A stretch of DNA of 64,000 nt from the NCBI RefSeq assembly GCF_030384885.1, contig NZ_CP128613.1; one strand, written 5' to 3'. The DNA is from Escherichia coli. Lineage in GTDB: Bacteria > Pseudomonadota > Gammaproteobacteria > Enterobacterales > Enterobacteriaceae. The stretch's first letter is position 1. The number at the start of each line of letters is the position of its first letter. The notes beneath the pieces are model-generated. The model had not been told where the DNA came from. It did no database searches and saw only the letters and a list, made by a program, of their open reading frames with translations. The position numbers were made by a program, and so were the translations under genes. Below are positions 48,996-57,166 of the stretch, piece after piece.

Positions 48996-50234
48996 TTAAT
49001 CAGGCTTTGGACAACGTTGTTCCTTCCAGCTGGCTACCGCCGCAATCCGCCGTCGGGTCAGCTCCTCGCGAATCTCCACACCTTTAAATCCCGCTTCAAC
49101 GACGGCTTTTGTCGGCACTGACTGTGCCACTTCCCAGGCTTCGCGCAACCAGCGGCCTTGCGGGTAGTCCGCTGATTCAAAACCGGTTCTGCCGCGCACA
49201 TCAGCCTCGCTGGTCAGCGCCAGTTGCTCGACACGCTGCGGTTTACGCCAGGCGTCGATGGAATCAAATAGTTTGACGATGGTTTTTGGGTTCAGCATTG
49301 GGAAGGTGTGGATGAGATCGTGAAACTCAGCCACCAGTCTGGCTAAATCGCGAATTTCATTTGGCACGCGCAGACGCTGGCATAGTTGTTCCACTAACTT
49401 CACACCCGCCGGGCCATGACCATGATGACGCGGCCAAAGTTCTGGCGGCGTCAGTCCTTTACCGAGATCGTGGCATAGCGTTGCGAAACGGACATCGACC
49501 TGCGGACTTAGCATCGCCGCCATTGAGAGCGTCATTAAGGTGTGAATACCGGTGTCGATTTCCGGATGCCACTTGGCAGGGGCCGGAACGCCAAACAGGG
49601 CGTCAATTTCCGGGAATAAAACGCGCAGTGCGCCGCAATCGCGCAGTACCTGGAAGAACACCTGGGGATTGCGGGTAGTGAGGGCGCTTTCCGTCTCTTT
49701 CCACACCCGTTCAGGCGTCAGGTGTTCCAGTTCACCCGCGTGGGTCATCTCGCGCATCAGCGCCAGCGTTTCATCGGCAATACGAAAACCGAGGTGGGCA
49801 TAACGCGCAGCAAAACGCGCCACGCGCAGTACGCGTAACGGATCTTCGCCAAAAGCGGGGGAAACATGGCGCAACAGACGATTTTGCAGATCGCCCAGAC
49901 CGTTGTACGGGTCGATAATCTCGCCGTTATCGTCCTGGGCCAGCGCATTAATGGTCAGATCGCGCCGCTTAAGATCATCTTCCAGCGTGACATCCGGTGC
50001 GGCATAGCAGGTAAAACCGGTGTAACCGGAACCGGATTTCCGTTCGGTACGTGCCAGCGCATACTCTTCATGCGTTTGCGGATGCAGAAAAACAGGAAAA
50101 TCGCGGCCTACCTGCTGGTAGCCCGCGTCGAGCATCTCCTGTGGCGTACTACCGACTACCACCCAATCTCTGTCTTTGACCGGTAGCCCTAACAATGCAT
50201 CCCGAACAGCACCACCGACCAGATAAATCTTCAC
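48996..50234 (-). CDS. cca: tRNA nucleotidyltransferase (CCA-adding enzyme) Cca (412 aa)
   Basis: ORF track 412 aa [66 protein letters not shown]... Confidence 0.9.
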
Positions 50235-50297: not shown

Positions 50298-50918
50298 TTA
50301 GTTCATCCAGCGATCTTTACGTTTGCGCGTTGGGATCAGGTGCGGCAGTACCAGACCGAGCAGCAAGCCAAGCCCCAGCACGCCGCCACCATACATAAAC
50401 CACTGCATGATGATGGTGCGCTGTTTGTCATCCAGCTGTACGCTGGCGGCATCGACCTTTTTCTGCGCGACAATCAGCTCGTTTTTCAGTTTCTGATTTT
50501 CTTCTTTTAACCCGTTGATCACGCTGTCGCTCTGCGCCACTTTTTGCTGCATTTCTGCGGTGCGCTGATTCCAGGTGTTATCGATATTGGTGAGCTTATC
50601 GGTCAGGGTTTTGACCTGATTTTCCAGATCTGGCACACGGGAGCGCAGGCTTGGCTCTGTGCTAAGTTGTTTCAACGGGATCCAGGCGGTACGGCCAGAG
50701 CTGTCTTTCACCTGGGCATAATTGGTGTTGGCATCAGTTTGTAATAAGGTCACTTCCTCGCCGGCGTTAACCGTGCCCACGAGGCGATAATGGTCTCCCG
50801 GACCGCTACGGACCCAGGTATTCAGTTCGTCGGAAACATAGCGCGTTTCTTCAGCGTGTGAGACGGCAGTCGCGCTAAGTGCGAGTAAAGTTAATCCGAT
50901 CAGGCGTAATTTTGGCAT
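50298..50918 (-). CDS. ygiM: SH3-domain membrane protein YgiM (206 aa)
   Basis: ORF track 206 aa MPKLRLIGLTLLALSATAVSHAEETRYVSDELNTWVRSGPGDHYRLVGTVNAGEEV...; signal peptide, SH3b, coiled coil, C-terminal TM. Confidence 0.85.
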   Translation of the reverse strand: MPKLRLIGLTLLALSATAVSHAEETRYVSDELNTWVRSGPGDHYRLVGTVNAGEEVTLLQTDANTNYAQVKDSSGRTAWIPLKQLSTEPSLRSRVPDLENQVKTLTDKLTNIDNTWNQRTAEMQQKVAQSDSVINGLKEENQKLKNELIVAQKKVDAASVQLDDKQRTIIMQWFMYGGGVLGLGLLLGLVLPHLIPTRKRKDRWMN

Positions 50919-51260
50919 CAGGCTGTCGTTATTGTCATGGAAAGTGGAACGATAGTAGTGGCATCAGTGTCGCTACGCAAAGCATTCGACATCAATCGGA
51001 ATCCTCTGTGTCAGGTCTTGCCACTGCTTCAAACTTTTACGCCCGTCAAATTGCCCGTTGCATGGCAATTTGGCGCAAAATACTATCTACTGACAAAAAA
51101 GATCGCATTAAGTTCGCCGTTCATCGTCACTTATGTGACATAACCGATAAGTAAAGGCTTTGACATCCTCCCCCACCTTCGCGCAAAGCGACTCAGGAGG
51201 GGGATTCCCTTGTCAGGGTAGCAATACGTTGCCGCATTGCCCGGTTCCTCGCTCGACGGC

Positions 51261-52466
51261 TTACGCCGCCTTACGGGCGCGTCCTTTACGGACTGACGGC
51301 AATATTTGTCCTGCCGCCATGACTTCAAAACCTGCTGTTAATATATTTCGAGCGCCGTTTACATCGGCGTTTGCCGTATAGCCGCACGCGGTACAGATAA
51401 AGCTCGCCTGCGCCCTGCGGTTAATTTTCGATGTATGCCCACAACATGCGCATTTCTGACTGGTGTACGCCGGATTAATCGCCAGCACATCACCGCCGCG
51501 CCATGCCTGCTTATATTCGAGCTGGCGGCGCATTTCTGCCCAGCCCTGATCCAGTATCGCTCGGTTAAGACCTGATTTTGCCGCGACGTTGCGCCCCGGC
51601 TGGTCTACCGTACCCGCTGCTGATTTTGACATGTTCGAAACCTTTAAATCCTCAATGACTATCATCGCGTGGTTTTTGCTGATCGTCGTCGTGGTTTTAT
51701 GAAGGTAATCGCGGCGGATGTTTGCGATATGAGAGTGGAAACGGGAAATCTTCGCTTTCTGCTTTTTCCAGTTGGCGGAGAATTTAACCTTCCGGGCCAG
51801 ATGGCGCTGTAAGCGAGCCAGCTTATCCTGATTTTTTTTAAAGCTGTTTACCGGTTCAAAGATCGTGCCGTCTGAAAGTGTTGCCAGCTTCGTTATACCT
51901 GCATCCAGGCCTATTGCGCTGGTCGATGCGTGAATCGGATCGGTAACAGCTAATTCGACCTGAAAAGACACATACCAGTGTCCGGCATGCTGGCTGATGG
52001 TGCAATTTTTAATGACGCCTTCAATCTTCCGGGACTGACGAAATTTAACCCAGCCCAGTCCTGACGGGAGTTTCACACGGCCATAATCCAGCCCACAATA
52101 TTTGCTGAAATTGACGAACCGGATAGAGTCGCAGCCTTTGGTTTTCTTTTTGAAAACGGGCTTTTCAGCCGTCAGGGATTTATCAAAACAGCGATCCCAT
52201 GCGCTCCGCAGGTCTTTCAGTTTCTGCTGGAGGTTGTCAGTGTAACCCTCAGCAAGAAAGGCCAGCTCAGGGAGTTTTTTCCAGCCCGTAAGTCGTTTAT
52301 TCAGGTCGAAAGCTGACGGAATTTTTCCGCCCGCGTCATGAATGCTCAGTGTTTCATTCAGTGCATAGTTCCAGACAAAGCGAGCGCAACCGCACAACTG
52401 ACGCAACCTTTGCGCCTGCTGGTCAGTGGGGTAGAGCCTGTATTTATATGCTTTCTGGATTAACAT
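51261..52466 (-). CDS. tnpB: TnpB (IS200/IS605 OrfB; RuvC-like RNA-guided endonuclease, 401 aa)
   Basis: ORF track 401 aa MLIQKAYKYRLYPTDQQAQRLRQLCGCARFVWNYALN...; RuvC motifs (IGLDAGI, VIEDLKV, NADVNGARNI) and CxxC...CxxC zinc finger (CACCGHTSKINRRAQASFICTACGY). Confidence 0.85.
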   Translation of the reverse strand: MLIQKAYKYRLYPTDQQAQRLRQLCGCARFVWNYALNETLSIHDAGGKIPSAFDLNKRLTGWKKLPELAFLAEGYTDNLQQKLKDLRSAWDRCFDKSLTAEKPVFKKKTKGCDSIRFVNFSKYCGLDYGRVKLPSGLGWVKFRQSRKIEGVIKNCTISQHAGHWYVSFQVELAVTDPIHASTSAIGLDAGITKLATLSDGTIFEPVNSFKKNQDKLARLQRHLARKVKFSANWKKQKAKISRFHSHIANIRRDYLHKTTTTISKNHAMIVIEDLKVSNMSKSAAGTVDQPGRNVAAKSGLNRAILDQGWAEMRRQLEYKQAWRGGDVLAINPAYTSQKCACCGHTSKINRRAQASFICTACGYTANADVNGARNILTAGFEVMAAGQILPSVRKGRARKAA

Positions 52467-52532
52467 TTTGCATTCAGTATGTGGTTATTTAGAATGTACA
52501 ATATATCCACATTTTTTTGGGAGGATCAATAC

Positions 52533-52931
52533 GTGTGCGAAATCAATCGTTCACGCTATTCAGCTTACCTGTTGCATGTTCACGTTGTTTTTATGACAAA
52601 ATACCGCCGTCCAGTTTTTGGTGAATTGCATCATGCAAACATGCGTCAGTATGTAGCGGAGGTATGCGCGGACTTTGGCGCCGAGTTAAAGGAATGTGAC
52701 GGCGAGGCAGATCATGTTCACATGCTGATTGAATACCCACCGTTGGTGCAACTCACAAAGCTGGTAAACAGCCTTAAGTCCGTTACCAGTAGGCGGCTGC
52801 GGAATGATTTTATTGATTTGCGCGCCGCGTATTCAAAGCCCGTACTCTGGTCACGCTCTTATTTCATCGGTTCATGTGGTGGAGCACCGCTGGAAGTTGT
52901 GAAAAAGTATATTCAGAATCAGCGTGGCTGA
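52533..52931 (+). CDS. tnpA: TnpA, IS200-type Y1 HUH transposase (about 132 aa from GTG; ORF-track ATG at 52479 gives 150 aa)
   Basis: HUH motif ADHVHMLIEY and catalytic Tyr region LWSRSYFIGSCGG; strong GGGAGGA Shine-Dalgarno 7 nt before in-frame GTG at 52533. Confidence 0.8.
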   Translation: MCEINRSRYSAYLLHVHVVFMTKYRRPVFGELHHANMRQYVAEVCADFGAELKECDGEADHVHMLIEYPPLVQLTKLVNSLKSVTSRRLRNDFIDLRAAYSKPVLWSRSYFIGSCGGAPLEVVKKYIQNQRG

Positions 52932-53001
52932 TAAACTGCGGGCTTAACAGCCCAAATTCCCCTCCCGCCTACGTTGGGGGGGAGTACCCAGTGGAGGAAG
53001 G

Positions 53002-54303
53002 ATGGCTCAGGAAATCGAATTAAAGTTTATTGTTAATCACAGTGCCGTTGAGGCGTTGCGTGACCATCTCAATACGCTGGGCGGCGAGCACCATGACCCC
53101 GTGCAGTTGCTGAATATTTACTACGAAACGCCGGATAACTGGTTGCGTGAACACGATATGGGCTTACGTATTCGTGGCGAAAACGGCCGCTATGAGATGA
53201 CCATGAAAGTCGCTGGAAGAGTGACTGGCGGTTTACACCAGCGCCCGGAATATAACGTGGCGTTGAGCGAACCGACGCTCGACCTGGCGCAGTTACCGAC
53301 GGAAGTCTGGCCGAACGGCGAATTGCCTGCCGATCTCGCTTCCCGCGTACAACCGCTGTTCAGCACCGATTTTTATCGCGAAAAGTGGCTGGTGGAACTC
53401 GATGGCAGCCGAATTGAAATCGCTCTCGATCAGGGCGAGGTGAAGGCGGGCGAATTTGCTGAGCCTATCTGCGAGCTGGAACTGGAGCTGCTTAGCGGCG
53501 ACACGCGCGCGGTGCTGAAACTGGCGAACCAACTGGTATCGCAAACCGGATTACGCCAGGGCAGCCTGAGCAAAGCGGCGCGTGGCTATCATCTGGCGCA
53601 GGGCAATCCCGCGCGTGAAATCAAACCCACCACCATTTTGCATGTTGCGGCAAAAGCTGATGTGGAACAGGGGCTGGAAGCGGCGCTCGAGCTGGCGTTA
53701 GCGCAATGGCAGTATCATGAAGAACTCTGGGTCCGCGGCAACGATGCGGCGAAAGAGCAAGTGCTGGCTGCCATTGGCCTGGTCCGTCATACGCTGATGC
53801 TGTTCGGTGGCATTGTGCCGCGTAAAGCGAGCACTCACTTACGTGACCTGCTGACTCAATGCGAAGCGACCATCGCATCTGCGGTATCTGCCGTGACGGC
53901 GGTCTACTCTACCGAAACGGCGATGGCGAAGCTGGCGTTGACCGAATGGCTGGTAAGCAAAGCCTGGCAGCCGTTTTTAGATGCCAAAGCGCAGGGCAAA
54001 ATCAGCGATTCCTTCAAACGCTTTGCCGATATCCATCTTTCCCGCCATGCCGCTGAACTGAAAAGCGTTTTCTGCCAGCCGTTGGGCGATCGCTACCGTG
54101 ACCAGCTGCCACGCCTGACGCGTGACATTGACTCAATATTGTTGCTGGCGGGTTACTACGATCCTCTTGTCGCGCAAGCCTGGCTGGAGAACTGGCAGGG
54201 ACTGCGTCATGCCATTGCGACCGGGCAACGCATTGAAATTGAACATTTCCGTAATGAGGCAAACAATCAGGAACCGTTCTGGTTGCACAGCGGAAAACGT
54301 TAA
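53002..54303 (+). CDS. ygiF: Inorganic triphosphatase YgiF (CYTH domain, 433 aa)
   Basis: ORF track 433 aa [45 protein letters not shown]...; GGAGGAAGG Shine-Dalgarno. Confidence 0.9.
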
Positions 54304-54325
54304 TCAGCCAAGGATAAAATCGCTT

Positions 54326-57166
54326 ATGAAGCCGCTCTCTTCACCGTTACAGCAGTACTGGCAGACCGTTGTTGAGCGGCTGCCAGCGCCTTTAGCCGAG
54401 GAATCACTTAGCGCACAGGCGAAGTTAGTACTTACTTTTAGTGATTTTGTGCAGGACAGCGTAATTGCGCATCCAGAGTGGCTGACGGAACTGGAAAGCC
54501 AGCCGCCGCAGGCCGACGAATGGCAGCATTACGCTGCATGGTTGCAGAAGGCGCTCAGTGATGTAAGCGACGAAGCAGGGTTAATGCGCGAGCTGCGTCT
54601 GTTCCGGCGGCGCATTATGGTGCGCATTGCCTGGGCGCAAACGCTGGCACTGGTTACTGAAGAGAGCATATTGCAGCAGCTCAGCCATCTGGCGGAGACA
54701 TTGATTGTCGCCGCGCGTGACTGGCTGTATGAGGCCTGCTGTCGCGAGTGGGGAACGCCGTGCAATGCGCAGGGTGAAGCGCAACCGCTGCTGATTTTAG
54801 GCATGGGTAAACTGGGCGGCGGGGAGCTGAATTTTTCCTCAGATATCGATCTGATTTTTGTCTGGCCGGAACATGGTTGCACGCAGGGCGGACGCAGGGA
54901 ACTGGATAACGCTCAGTTCTTTACCCGCATGGGTCAGCGGCTGATTAAAGTGCTGGATCAACCAACGCAGGATGGTTTTGTTTATCGCGTGGATATGCGA
55001 CTGCGTCCGTTTGGCGAAAGTGGCCCGCTGGTGCTGAGCTTTGCGGCACTGGAAGACTATTACCAGGAGCAGGGGCGCGACTGGGAGCGATACGCCATGG
55101 TCAAGGCGCGGATTATGGGCGATAGCGACGGCGTCTATGCTAACGAGTTGCGTGCGATGCTGCGCCCGTTTGTTTTCCGCCGTTACATCGATTTCAGCGT
55201 CATCCAGTCGCTGCGCAACATGAAAGGGATGATTGCCCGTGAAGTACGTCGTCGTGGTTTGACCGATAACATCAAACTTGGCGCGGGTGGCATTCGCGAA
55301 ATTGAATTTATCGTTCAGGTGTTCCAGCTCATTCGCGGTGGGCGCGAGCCGTCGCTGCAATCCCGCTCTTTACTACCCACTCTCAGCACCATTGCCGAGC
55401 TGCATCTGCTTTCTGAAAACGATGCCGAACAATTGCGAGTGGCGTATCTCTTCCTGCGGCGTCTGGAAAATCTGCTGCAAAGCATTAACGACGAACAAAC
55501 TCAGACGCTTCCTTCTGATGAGCTTAACCGTGCGCGGCTGGCGTGGGCGATGGACTTTGCTGACTGGCCGCAACTGACCGGGGCGCTGACCGTACATATG
55601 ACCAATGTGCGCCGGGTGTTTAATGAATTGATTGGCGACGACGAAAGCGAAACTCAGGAAGAGTCGCTGTCGGAACAGTGGCGTGAGCTGTGGCAGGATG
55701 CGTTGCAGGAAGATGACACTACGCCAGTGCTGGCGCATCTTAGCGAAGATGATCGCAAACAGGTGCTGACGCTGATTGCTGATTTCCGCAAAGAGCTGGA
55801 TAAGCGCACTATTGGGCCGCGAGGACGTCAGGTGCTCGACCATCTGATGCCGCATCTGCTAAGTGATGTCTGTGCGCGTGAAGACGCTGCTGTCACGTTG
55901 TCGCGCATTACCGCCTTGCTGGTGGGGATTGTCACCCGTACGACCTATCTTGAACTGCTTAGTGAATTCCCTGCGGCGCTTAAACATTTGATTTCGCTGT
56001 GCGCCGCATCGCCGATGATTGCCAGCCAACTGGCGCGTTATCCGTTATTACTGGATGAACTGCTCGATCCAAACACTCTCTACCAGCCGACGGCGACCGA
56101 TGCTTACCGTGATGAGTTGCGCCAGTATTTGCTGCGCGTGCCGGAAGATGACGAAGAACAACAGCTTGAGGCGCTGCGTCAGTTTAAACAGGCGCAACTG
56201 TTACGTATTGCGGCAGCGGATATTGCGGGTACGCTGCCGGTAATGAAAGTGAGCGATCACTTAACCTGGCTGGCAGAAGCCATGATAGATGCTGTCGTAC
56301 AACAGGCATGGGTTCAAATGGTTGCCCGCTACGGTAAGCCAAATCACCTGAACGAACGCGAAGGGCGTGGTTTTGCGGTGGTCGGCTACGGCAAGCTGGG
56401 CGGCTGGGAGTTAGGCTACAGTTCCGATCTTGACCTGATCTTCCTCCATGATTGCCCAATGGATGCGATGACTGACGGCGAGCGGGAAATCGACGGGCGA
56501 CAGTTTTATCTGCGTCTGGCGCAACGCATTATGCATCTGTTCAGTACGCGAACCTCTTCCGGCATTTTGTATGAAGTGGATGCTCGACTGCGTCCGTCCG
56601 GGGCGGCGGGAATGCTGGTCACCTCTGCAGAAGCGTTTTCCGATTATCAGAAAAACGAGGCCTGGACGTGGGAACATCAGGCGCTGGTGCGTGCGCGTGT
56701 AGTGTACGGCGATCCGCAGCTCACCGCGCACTTTGACGCGGTGCGTCGCGAGATTATGACGCTGCCGCGTGAAGGTAAAACTCTGCAAACGGAAGTGCGG
56801 GAAATGCGCGAGAAAATGCGCGCTCATCTCGGCAATAAACATCGCGATCGCTTTGATATCAAAGCCGATGAAGGCGGAATTACCGATATCGAATTTATTA
56901 CCCAATATCTGGTGTTGCGCTACGCTCATGAAAAACCGAAGTTAACGCGCTGGTCAGACAACGTGCGTATTCTGGAGCTGCTGGCGCAAAACGACATTAT
57001 GGAAGAGCAGGAAGCGATGGTGCTGACCCGTGCTTACACTACGCTGCGCGATGAACTTCATCATCTGGCATTACAGGAATTGCCGGGCCATGTGTCGGAG
57101 GATTGCTTCACCGCAGAGCGTGATCTGGTGCGGGCAAGCTGGCAGAAGTGGCTGGTGGAAGAATGA
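54326..57166 (+). CDS. glnE: Glutamine synthetase adenylyltransferase GlnE (946 aa)
   Basis: ORF 54122..57166; start at [28 protein letters not shown] (ATG 54326) gives 946 aa; two nucleotidyltransferase domains. Confidence 0.95.

Follow-up and report, generated by a model that had tools for sequence, protein, structure and literature searches.

An IS605-type element between ygiM and ygiF

We analysed a 64,000-nucleotide stretch of Escherichia coli DNA (NCBI RefSeq assembly GCF_030384885.1, contig NZ_CP128613.1), hereafter the window, in which an insertion sequence (IS) of the IS200/IS605 family lies between ygiM and ygiF. The genes cca (48996-50234, minus strand) and ygiM (50298-50918, minus strand) flank the 1842-bp IS (51160-53001, minus strand) on one side. 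On the other side are ygiF (53002-54303, plus strand) and then glnE. The region 50919-53001 is 100 % identical to that of E. coli strain 2013C-4282 (NZ_CP027579). From its sequence anatomy, we consider it probable that the element is a structurally complete ISEc41-type IS of the IS605 group, with divergent tnpA and tnpB genes and the TnpA/TnpB mechanism proposed below.

Element ends were set by comparing the occupied locus with two empty sites. A preliminary description of this DNA had proposed such a comparison with the uninterrupted ygiM-ygiF region, and it yielded both the ends (51160 and 53001) and the target, CCAT. When 50919-53001 was used as a query, only its first 240-244 bases were matched in most E. 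coli genomes. Both empty sites read gataagtaaaggc[c/t] up to the insertion point (gtaaaggc[c/t] directly before it) and ATGGCTCAGG after it. At the occupied site, TTGACATCC...GGAGGAAGG is inserted between these two points. These sequences delimit the IS to 51160-53001 and show no target duplication. The limits first suggested (51130-52995) began 30 bp beyond the right end and stopped 6 bp short of the left end. Because tnpB is directed towards 51160, the top strand of the IS corresponds to the minus strand of the window, with the left end (LE) at 53001 and the right end (RE) at 51160.

E. coli K-12 MG1655 has an empty site with a 241-bp ygiM-ygiF spacer, in agreement with the earlier view of a strain-specific insertion missing from K-12. 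The placement of an IS200/IS605 element between ygiM and ygiF and its divergent IS605-type layout were also borne out by the open reading frames (ORFs), NCBIfam matches and neighbouring genes. RefSeq names the locus 'IS200/IS605-like element ISEc41 family transposase' and 'RNA-guided endonuclease InsQ/TnpB family protein', and the same naming is found in 2013C-4282, CFT073, Nissle 1917, ATCC 25922 and other strains (TnpA is WP_000266196.1). The ISEc41 assignment is the product name from the Prokaryotic Genome Annotation Pipeline alone, and the element is an already catalogued one, not a new kind of system. Our literature search found ISEc41 mentioned only in passing, in three papers, with no characterisation, and found nothing joining TnpB with ygiF or TnpB with a CCAT transposon-associated motif (TAM).

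The tnpB and tnpA genes

We identified tnpB (51261-52466, minus strand) from its ORF and an NCBIfam match. Its 401-residue product is, by family, an RNA-guided nuclease (NCBIfam accession NF040570, 'RNA-guided endonuclease TnpB family', 355 bits against a cutoff of 100). TnpB contains the RuvC residues D188, E272 and D368 and a CxxC...CxxC zinc finger (C339/C342/C358/C361), all of which are invariant across the TnpB proteins of seven relatives. Alignment with ISDra2 TnpB bears out the preliminary claim of a full-length protein with a RuvC D-E-D triad and zinc finger.

The E. coli tnpB carries a 21-nt in-frame insertion (residues 377-383, TAGFEVM; 51318-51338) that the relatives lack. This insertion resembles a diverged duplication of the adjacent AAGHAVL codons and falls inside the predicted omega-RNA scaffold. 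We also observed a tnpB-only derivative on E. coli and Klebsiella plasmids (L005 and L007) that has ~79 % protein identity and no tnpA. It still has the same right end and, before the tnpB start, the conserved upstream sequence. Its neighbours are a RelE/Phd toxin-antitoxin pair and other IS605-type elements in a nested arrangement.

The tnpA ORF (52479-52931, plus strand) encodes a Y1 HUH transposase (NCBIfam accession NF033573, 'IS200/IS605 family transposase', 140 bits (139.9) against a cutoff of 55). RefSeq gives a 150-residue protein from ATG 52479, and an in-frame GTG at 52533 would give 132 residues (52533-52931). In the 150-residue numbering, the HUH motif is H79/H81 and the other active-site residues are Tyr144 and Gln148. 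Alignment to IS608 TnpA (2A6M) places HVH on H64/H66 and KKYIQNQ on Y127...Q131. The alignment of KKYIQNQ with Y127 locates the catalytic tyrosine in the C-terminal helix, outside SRSYF. Both the HUH motif and the tyrosine reported in the preliminary description are thus kept, the tyrosine sitting in KKYIQNQ and not in SRSYF.

The GTG at 52533 is more likely to be the tnpA start than the ATG at 52479. In alignments, solved homologues begin at residues 21-29 of the 150-residue version. The starts of relatives are 1-4 codons before a conserved E-I-N motif, upstream of which their proteins show no conservation. A GGGAGGA Shine-Dalgarno sequence (52519-52525, plus strand) sits 7 nt before the GTG, and a promoter-like site would put the ATG upstream of the transcript start. 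The same GTG, with its GGGAGGA, had been favoured in the preliminary description, and the homologues, the starts of relatives, the Shine-Dalgarno sequence and the promoter-like -10 all point the same way.

Between the two genes lies a divergent control region (52467-52532) recognised from consensus matches and conservation in relatives. It contains a promoter-like site for tnpA (TTTGCA-17-TAGAAT; 52467-52495, plus strand) and another for tnpB (TTGATC-18-TATATT; 52529-52500, minus strand), each a consensus match only. The 66-bp shared region described earlier holds if tnpA starts at GTG 52533, and the RefSeq ATG at 52479 leaves 12 bp.

Left end, right end and target

LE (52932-53001, minus strand) was delimited by alignment with relatives. 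It includes an imperfect hairpin, CTCCCcCC(c)-AACGTA-GGcGGGAG, that is, CTCCCcCC(c)AACGTAGGcGGGAG (52962-52984, minus strand), identified from sequence and conservation in relatives. The foot of this hairpin is 17 nt from the element end. The left guide tetranucleotide (G_L), GGTA (52985-52988, minus strand), lies 5' of the hairpin and is a position-wise complement of the target CCAT. As isolated DNA, the LE segment folds no better than shuffled sequences (z = -0.28).

The RE core (51160-51207, minus strand) was defined from DNA folding and the RE copies of relatives. It consists of a right guide (G_R), GAAT (51204-51207, minus strand), an imperfect hairpin, CCCCCtCC...GGtGGGGG (51170-51203, minus strand), and the sequence AGGATGTCAA, which ends in the cleavage site TCAA (51160-51163, minus strand) 10 nt 3' of the hairpin. 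As single-stranded DNA, RE folds at -21.7 kcal/mol (z = -4.6 against shuffled sequence). The element has no terminal inverted repeats. Subterminal hairpins occur on the minus strand at both ends, each with a central mismatch, and their stems covary among relatives.

The target, 5'-CCAT-3' on the top strand (53002-53005, minus strand), directly precedes LE in five independent insertions of the close clade. On the top strand, the LE junction reads GAGCCAT followed by CCTTCCTCCACTGGG, and the RE junction reads GGGGGAGGATGTCAA followed by AGCCTTTACTTATCGG. Four other independent LE junctions, in a Citrobacter plasmid (L006), a Klebsiella plasmid (L007), a Rhodocyclaceae metagenome-assembled genome (L009) and Xenorhabdus (L010), consist of unrelated DNA, CCAT and then the left end. 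An Aeromonas media contig that is essentially the IS alone (L008) likewise begins with CCAT. The sharing of CCAT by independent LE junctions identifies it as the target and, by family rule, also as the predicted TAM of TnpB.

At the other end, 24 RE copies at other loci in a wider clade terminate in GGAGGATGTCAA, with a variant, GGAGGGTGTCAA, in L011; beyond this terminus, the available flanks differ from copy to copy. In a distant clade (Yersinia, Morganella and Serratia; ~59 % TnpB identity), G_L is AAAG with target TTAC and AAAA with target TTAT. This covariation of guide and target supports the G_L assignment. The same sister clade (L013-L019, L025, L032, L037-L041; also Buttiauxella) has the RE terminus GGAGGATGTCAA and the target TTAT or TTAC. 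Buttiauxella warmboldiae carries at least 6 copies with right ends at different flanks, from which we infer that the sister clade has transposed.

At this locus, CCAT read in reverse complement gives ATGG, in which the ygiF ATG is followed by G. Insertion 3' of CCAT therefore makes LE abut the start codon. We considered a preference of the clade for start codons and rejected it: in four other insertions, ATGG opens only 9-37 codons (one flank was too short). Since other insertions of the clade miss gene starts, the start-codon position at ygiF is a coincidence of this insertion.

Predicted omega-RNA, guide and mechanism

We predict an omega-RNA (also termed right-element RNA, reRNA) scaffold at 51160-51350 (minus strand), comprising the tnpB 3' end and RE; its 5' limit is approximate. 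The 240 nt ending 20 nt past the right end have an RNA fold z-score of -4.9 as a single sequence. A consensus structure was derived from an alignment of 22 right-end regions of relatives, with slid partners as controls. It contains 37 pairs, with 96.4 % of cells paired (42-54 % in controls), compensatory changes in 11 pairs (1-6 in controls) and a covariation score of 0.248 (0.05-0.085 in controls). As TnpA also uses the terminal hairpin in DNA form, this signal is partly shared with DNA function. Such conservation and covariation across the tnpB 3' end and RE are what an omega-RNA would be expected to show. An apparent decay of omega-RNA helix 3 in the window copy proved to be an alignment artefact of the 21-nt insertion, the hairpin lying 21 nt downstream.

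The ISDra2 TnpB/reRNA model supplies a rule for guide position (Karvelis 2021, PMC8612924). Applied to the flank just outside RE, this family rule predicts a 16-nt omega-RNA guide, AGCCTTTACTTATCGG (51144-51159, minus strand). The top strand of the empty site reads CCAT + [A/G]GCCTTTACTTATCGG. By analogy with ISDra2, the guide would be AGCCUUUACUUAUCGG and its predicted target would be the empty site, CCAT + [A/G]GCCTTTACTTATCGG. Predicted guide position 1 (51159) is t in the window and c in the seven other carriers examined, and both alleles are found among empty sites.

The anatomy is fully consistent with a functional TnpA/TnpB/omega-RNA unit. In the mechanism that we propose, TnpA would cut out a single-stranded circle of the top strand and paste it 3' of CCAT ('peel and paste'). 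The tnpB mRNA would be processed to an omega-RNA whose last ~16 nt (AGCCUUUACUUAUCGG) derive from the ygiM-side flank. TnpB would then cut the empty joint (CCAT + flank) left by excision, so that the IS would be restored by recombination from the sister copy.

LE as the 5' region of ygiF

The outer tip of LE, GGAGGAAGG (52993-53001, plus strand), resembles a Shine-Dalgarno sequence and directly precedes the ygiF ATG at 53002. At the empty site, ygiF is preceded only by AAAGG, 2 nt from the ATG. Relatives have GGAGTAAAG or GAGACAAAAG at the LE-tip position, both weaker than GGAGGAAGG. The IS has moved the native ygiF 5' region 1.84 kb away, and LE would provide GGAGGAAGG as a new ygiF ribosome-binding site. 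A scan found no terminator-like site between tnpA and ygiF. As the two genes are co-directional with no such site between them, read-through is plausible, and ygiF is probably transcribed in this way from tnpA. Expression of ygiF, and perhaps of the downstream glnE, likely differs from K-12 in carrier strains.

Distribution of the element

We searched 5426 complete E. coli genomes, 72,556 plasmids, metagenomes and 100,044 species representatives. The full element was found in 148 of the 5426 E. coli genomes, including those of CFT073, Nissle 1917, ABU 83972 and ATCC 25922. Simulated empty-site queries recovered 5279 genomes with contiguous flanks (empty, or with a 63-bp remnant) and exactly 148 places beyond one per genome. 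These 148 extra places imply that each carrier has one copy, at the ygiF site.

The 63-bp remnant occupies the same site in ~8 genomes, such as RM14723 (L004, 2483-2545). It consists of 45 bp of RE fused to the LE tip across a shared GGGGGA, which produces a single hybrid hairpin. The remnant retains CCAT, GGTA and TCAA, as well as GGAGGAAGG before the ygiF ATG.

Several observations weigh against an active element. The 5426 E. coli genomes yielded neither a second site nor a second copy, and the 72,556 plasmids contain no full-length match above ~77 % DNA identity. A metagenome scan with a strict left-end pattern, covering the C6 variant only, returned 8 matches, all at the ygiF site. Among the 100,044 species representatives, the nearest TnpB relative is only 81 % identical. 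As a single site is seen across all data sets, there is no sign of transposition by this element. From the population data, recent transposition appears unlikely. Recent excision was also considered and rejected: simulated empty-site queries recovered no IS-less genome with flanks identical to those of the window or CFT073. The best IS-less flank match was 98.1 % for the window (1400-bp flank query) and 99.7 % for CFT073 (in LF82). With the nearest IS-less flanks only 99.7 % identical, precise excision within sequence type 73 (ST73) is unsupported.

Features of the element itself point in the same direction. tnpB lacks an obvious Shine-Dalgarno sequence, and an Rfam scan of 50800-53200 at E <= 1 found no matching family. 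Between E. coli copies, non-synonymous and synonymous tnpB substitutions number 7 and 3 in one comparison and 4 and 2 in another. This mostly non-synonymous pattern suggests relaxed selection, with small counts. The promoter and read-through readings come from consensus scans only. The preliminary suggestion that the element may be mobile thus finds no support in the population data, which show a single copy at a single site everywhere. Its description as intact stands, since neither truncated tnpA or tnpB frames nor missing ends were seen.

Age and route of spread

To date the insertion relative to its hosts, we compared divergence pairwise among eight carriers. The IS diverges by 0.05-0.81 %, compared with up to 4.1 % on the bacA-cca-ygiM side, up to 5.2 % in ygiF and up to 5.6 % in the 5' part of glnE. 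CFT073, which belongs to ST73, differs from the seven other carriers by 0.5-0.8 % in the IS and by 3.5-5.6 % in the flanks. Strong constraint cannot explain the low IS divergence, because the tnpB substitutions are mostly non-synonymous. Since the IS is less diverged than its flanks, we infer that the element is younger than the host split and reached the same site horizontally.

The sequences that directly adjoin the IS are conserved. The eight carriers are 100 % identical over the 241-bp spacer (50919-51159), with the window single-nucleotide polymorphism at 51159 as the sole exception, and the first ~95-130 bp of ygiF show zero differences in two carrier comparisons. The spacer has a 99-100 % match in nearly all ~5400 complete E. 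coli genomes (most sampled matches were at 100 %). In the same strains, divergence of the genes on either side reaches up to 4-5 %. The spacer has no match in Rfam. Polymorphism is unusually high, and mosaic, in the region 53002-56001, which covers ygiF and the 5' part of glnE and differs by 1.2-4.3 % between strains that differ by only 0.2-0.7 % on the bacA-cca-ygiM side.

Recombination through the flanks is the simplest route of spread, given the conserved spacer and ygiF 5' end. Ordinary homologous recombination of transferred DNA could have moved the IS between lineages without help from the IS proteins, an explanation that we find as easy to accept as to doubt. IS divergence of at most 0.8 % against 3.5-5.6 % in the flanks is compatible with such transfer, as is a surrounding region that is visibly a recombination mosaic. 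The spacer, near-identical across carriers and other E. coli genomes, and the invariant start of ygiF offer crossover substrate. The lack of co-transferred flank polymorphism is harder to accommodate. Differences start 96-131 bp into ygiF and 328-427 bp away on the ygiM side, so this route needs short tracts every time or later erosion of the flanks. A single-locus 'homing' element would account for that lack: guide-loaded TnpB would cut the empty CCAT + GCCTTTACTTATCGG, which nearly all E. coli conserve, in the recipient, the incoming copy would serve for repair and the host would come to rely on LE for the ygiF ribosome-binding site and a promoter. Repair from the incoming copy would install the IS with very short co-converted flanks. 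Homing, if true, would account for the presence of a young IS at the identical site in lineages that diverged deeply, without co-transferred flank, but we regard it as improbable. Inheritance from a common ancestor of the carriers, with loss by precise excision in most E. coli, would fit the identical site and orientation in all carriers, and the family excises precisely, leaving scarless losses. Such descent is very hard to reconcile with an IS whose divergence between ST73 and the other carriers is 4-10 times lower than that of either flank, particularly as near-neutral tnpB substitution should speed divergence, not slow it. We rejected it on this comparison of IS and flank divergence and give it very little credence.

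In another reading, the element is a fixed, effectively immobile insertion that looks intact, no longer transposes in E. coli and is kept because ygiF, and possibly glnE, depends on its promoter and ribosome-binding site. The single site and single copy seen everywhere, the near-neutral tnpB substitutions and the lack of an ST73 haplotype without the IS all fit this explanation. So does the LE tip, as GGAGGAAGG is found in the E. coli copy only, the versions of relatives are weaker and the 63-bp remnant of ~8 genomes preserves exactly this tip before the ATG. Against it, no copy examined has a break in either gene and the ends and catalytic residues are intact, whereas an unselected 1.8-kb element should gather frameshifts. 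Low divergence indicates a young element whose intactness may simply reflect its age, a consideration that weakens both readings equally. On balance, immobility maintained by ygiF dependence is possible but somewhat doubtful, and we retain the reading of a structurally complete ISEc41-type IS with the proposed TnpA/TnpB mechanism.

Implications

As a known IS, already annotated in familiar strains (CFT073, Nissle 1917 and ATCC 25922), the element has little novelty. What this analysis adds is anatomy: the exact ends, the predicted CCAT target/TAM and the predicted 16-nt guide of a TnpB native to E. coli, for which our literature searches found no report. A young single-site IS in diverged lineages, together with 63-bp remnants in some genomes, could be used to study in nature whether TnpB assists retention or homing. 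If any aspects merit further work, they are the horizontal spread to a single site and the possible dependence of ygiF on LE.

Comparison with known systems

In IS608, TTAC precedes the left hairpin by 19 nt and TCAA follows the right hairpin by 10 nt, and the guides are AAAG (G_L) and GAAT (G_R) (PMC3201880, PMC5934647). AAAG is position-wise complementary to TTAC (PMC5934647). The E. coli TnpA aligns over its whole catalytic core with that of the Helicobacter pylori elements IS608/IS605, and the HUH, Tyr and Gln residues are kept. G_R GAAT, TCAA and the 10-nt RE spacing are all identical to those of IS608. As in IS608, both ends have subterminal imperfect hairpins on the same strand, the LE guide complements the target and the target is not duplicated. 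The E. coli element differs from IS608 in its target (CCAT instead of TTAC), its G_L (GGTA instead of AAAG) and its LE spacing (17 instead of 19 nt). Its divergent gene order is that of IS605, whereas tnpA and tnpB are co-directional in IS608.

The closest structural reference for the nuclease is ISDra2 TnpB of Deinococcus radiodurans (8BF8/8EXA/8H1J), with which residues 2-379 align (E = 7e-49). D188/E272/D368 align to D191/E278/D361, and the zinc finger is kept. Both elements have a structured tnpB 3' end and RE with an invariant 3' motif that adjoins the flank. Unlike ISDra2, the E. coli element has a predicted TAM of CCAT instead of TTGAT, and its TnpB has 15 extra residues after RuvC-II and ends in a different C-terminal tail.

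The elements of Klebsiella and Citrobacter plasmids, Aeromonas and Xenorhabdus share the layout, the CCAT target and the RE terminus of the E. coli IS, with 70-83 % TnpB identity. Their DNA is only 74-77 % identical, and some of these relatives are multicopy or plasmid-borne, in contrast to the chromosomal, single-site element of E. coli.

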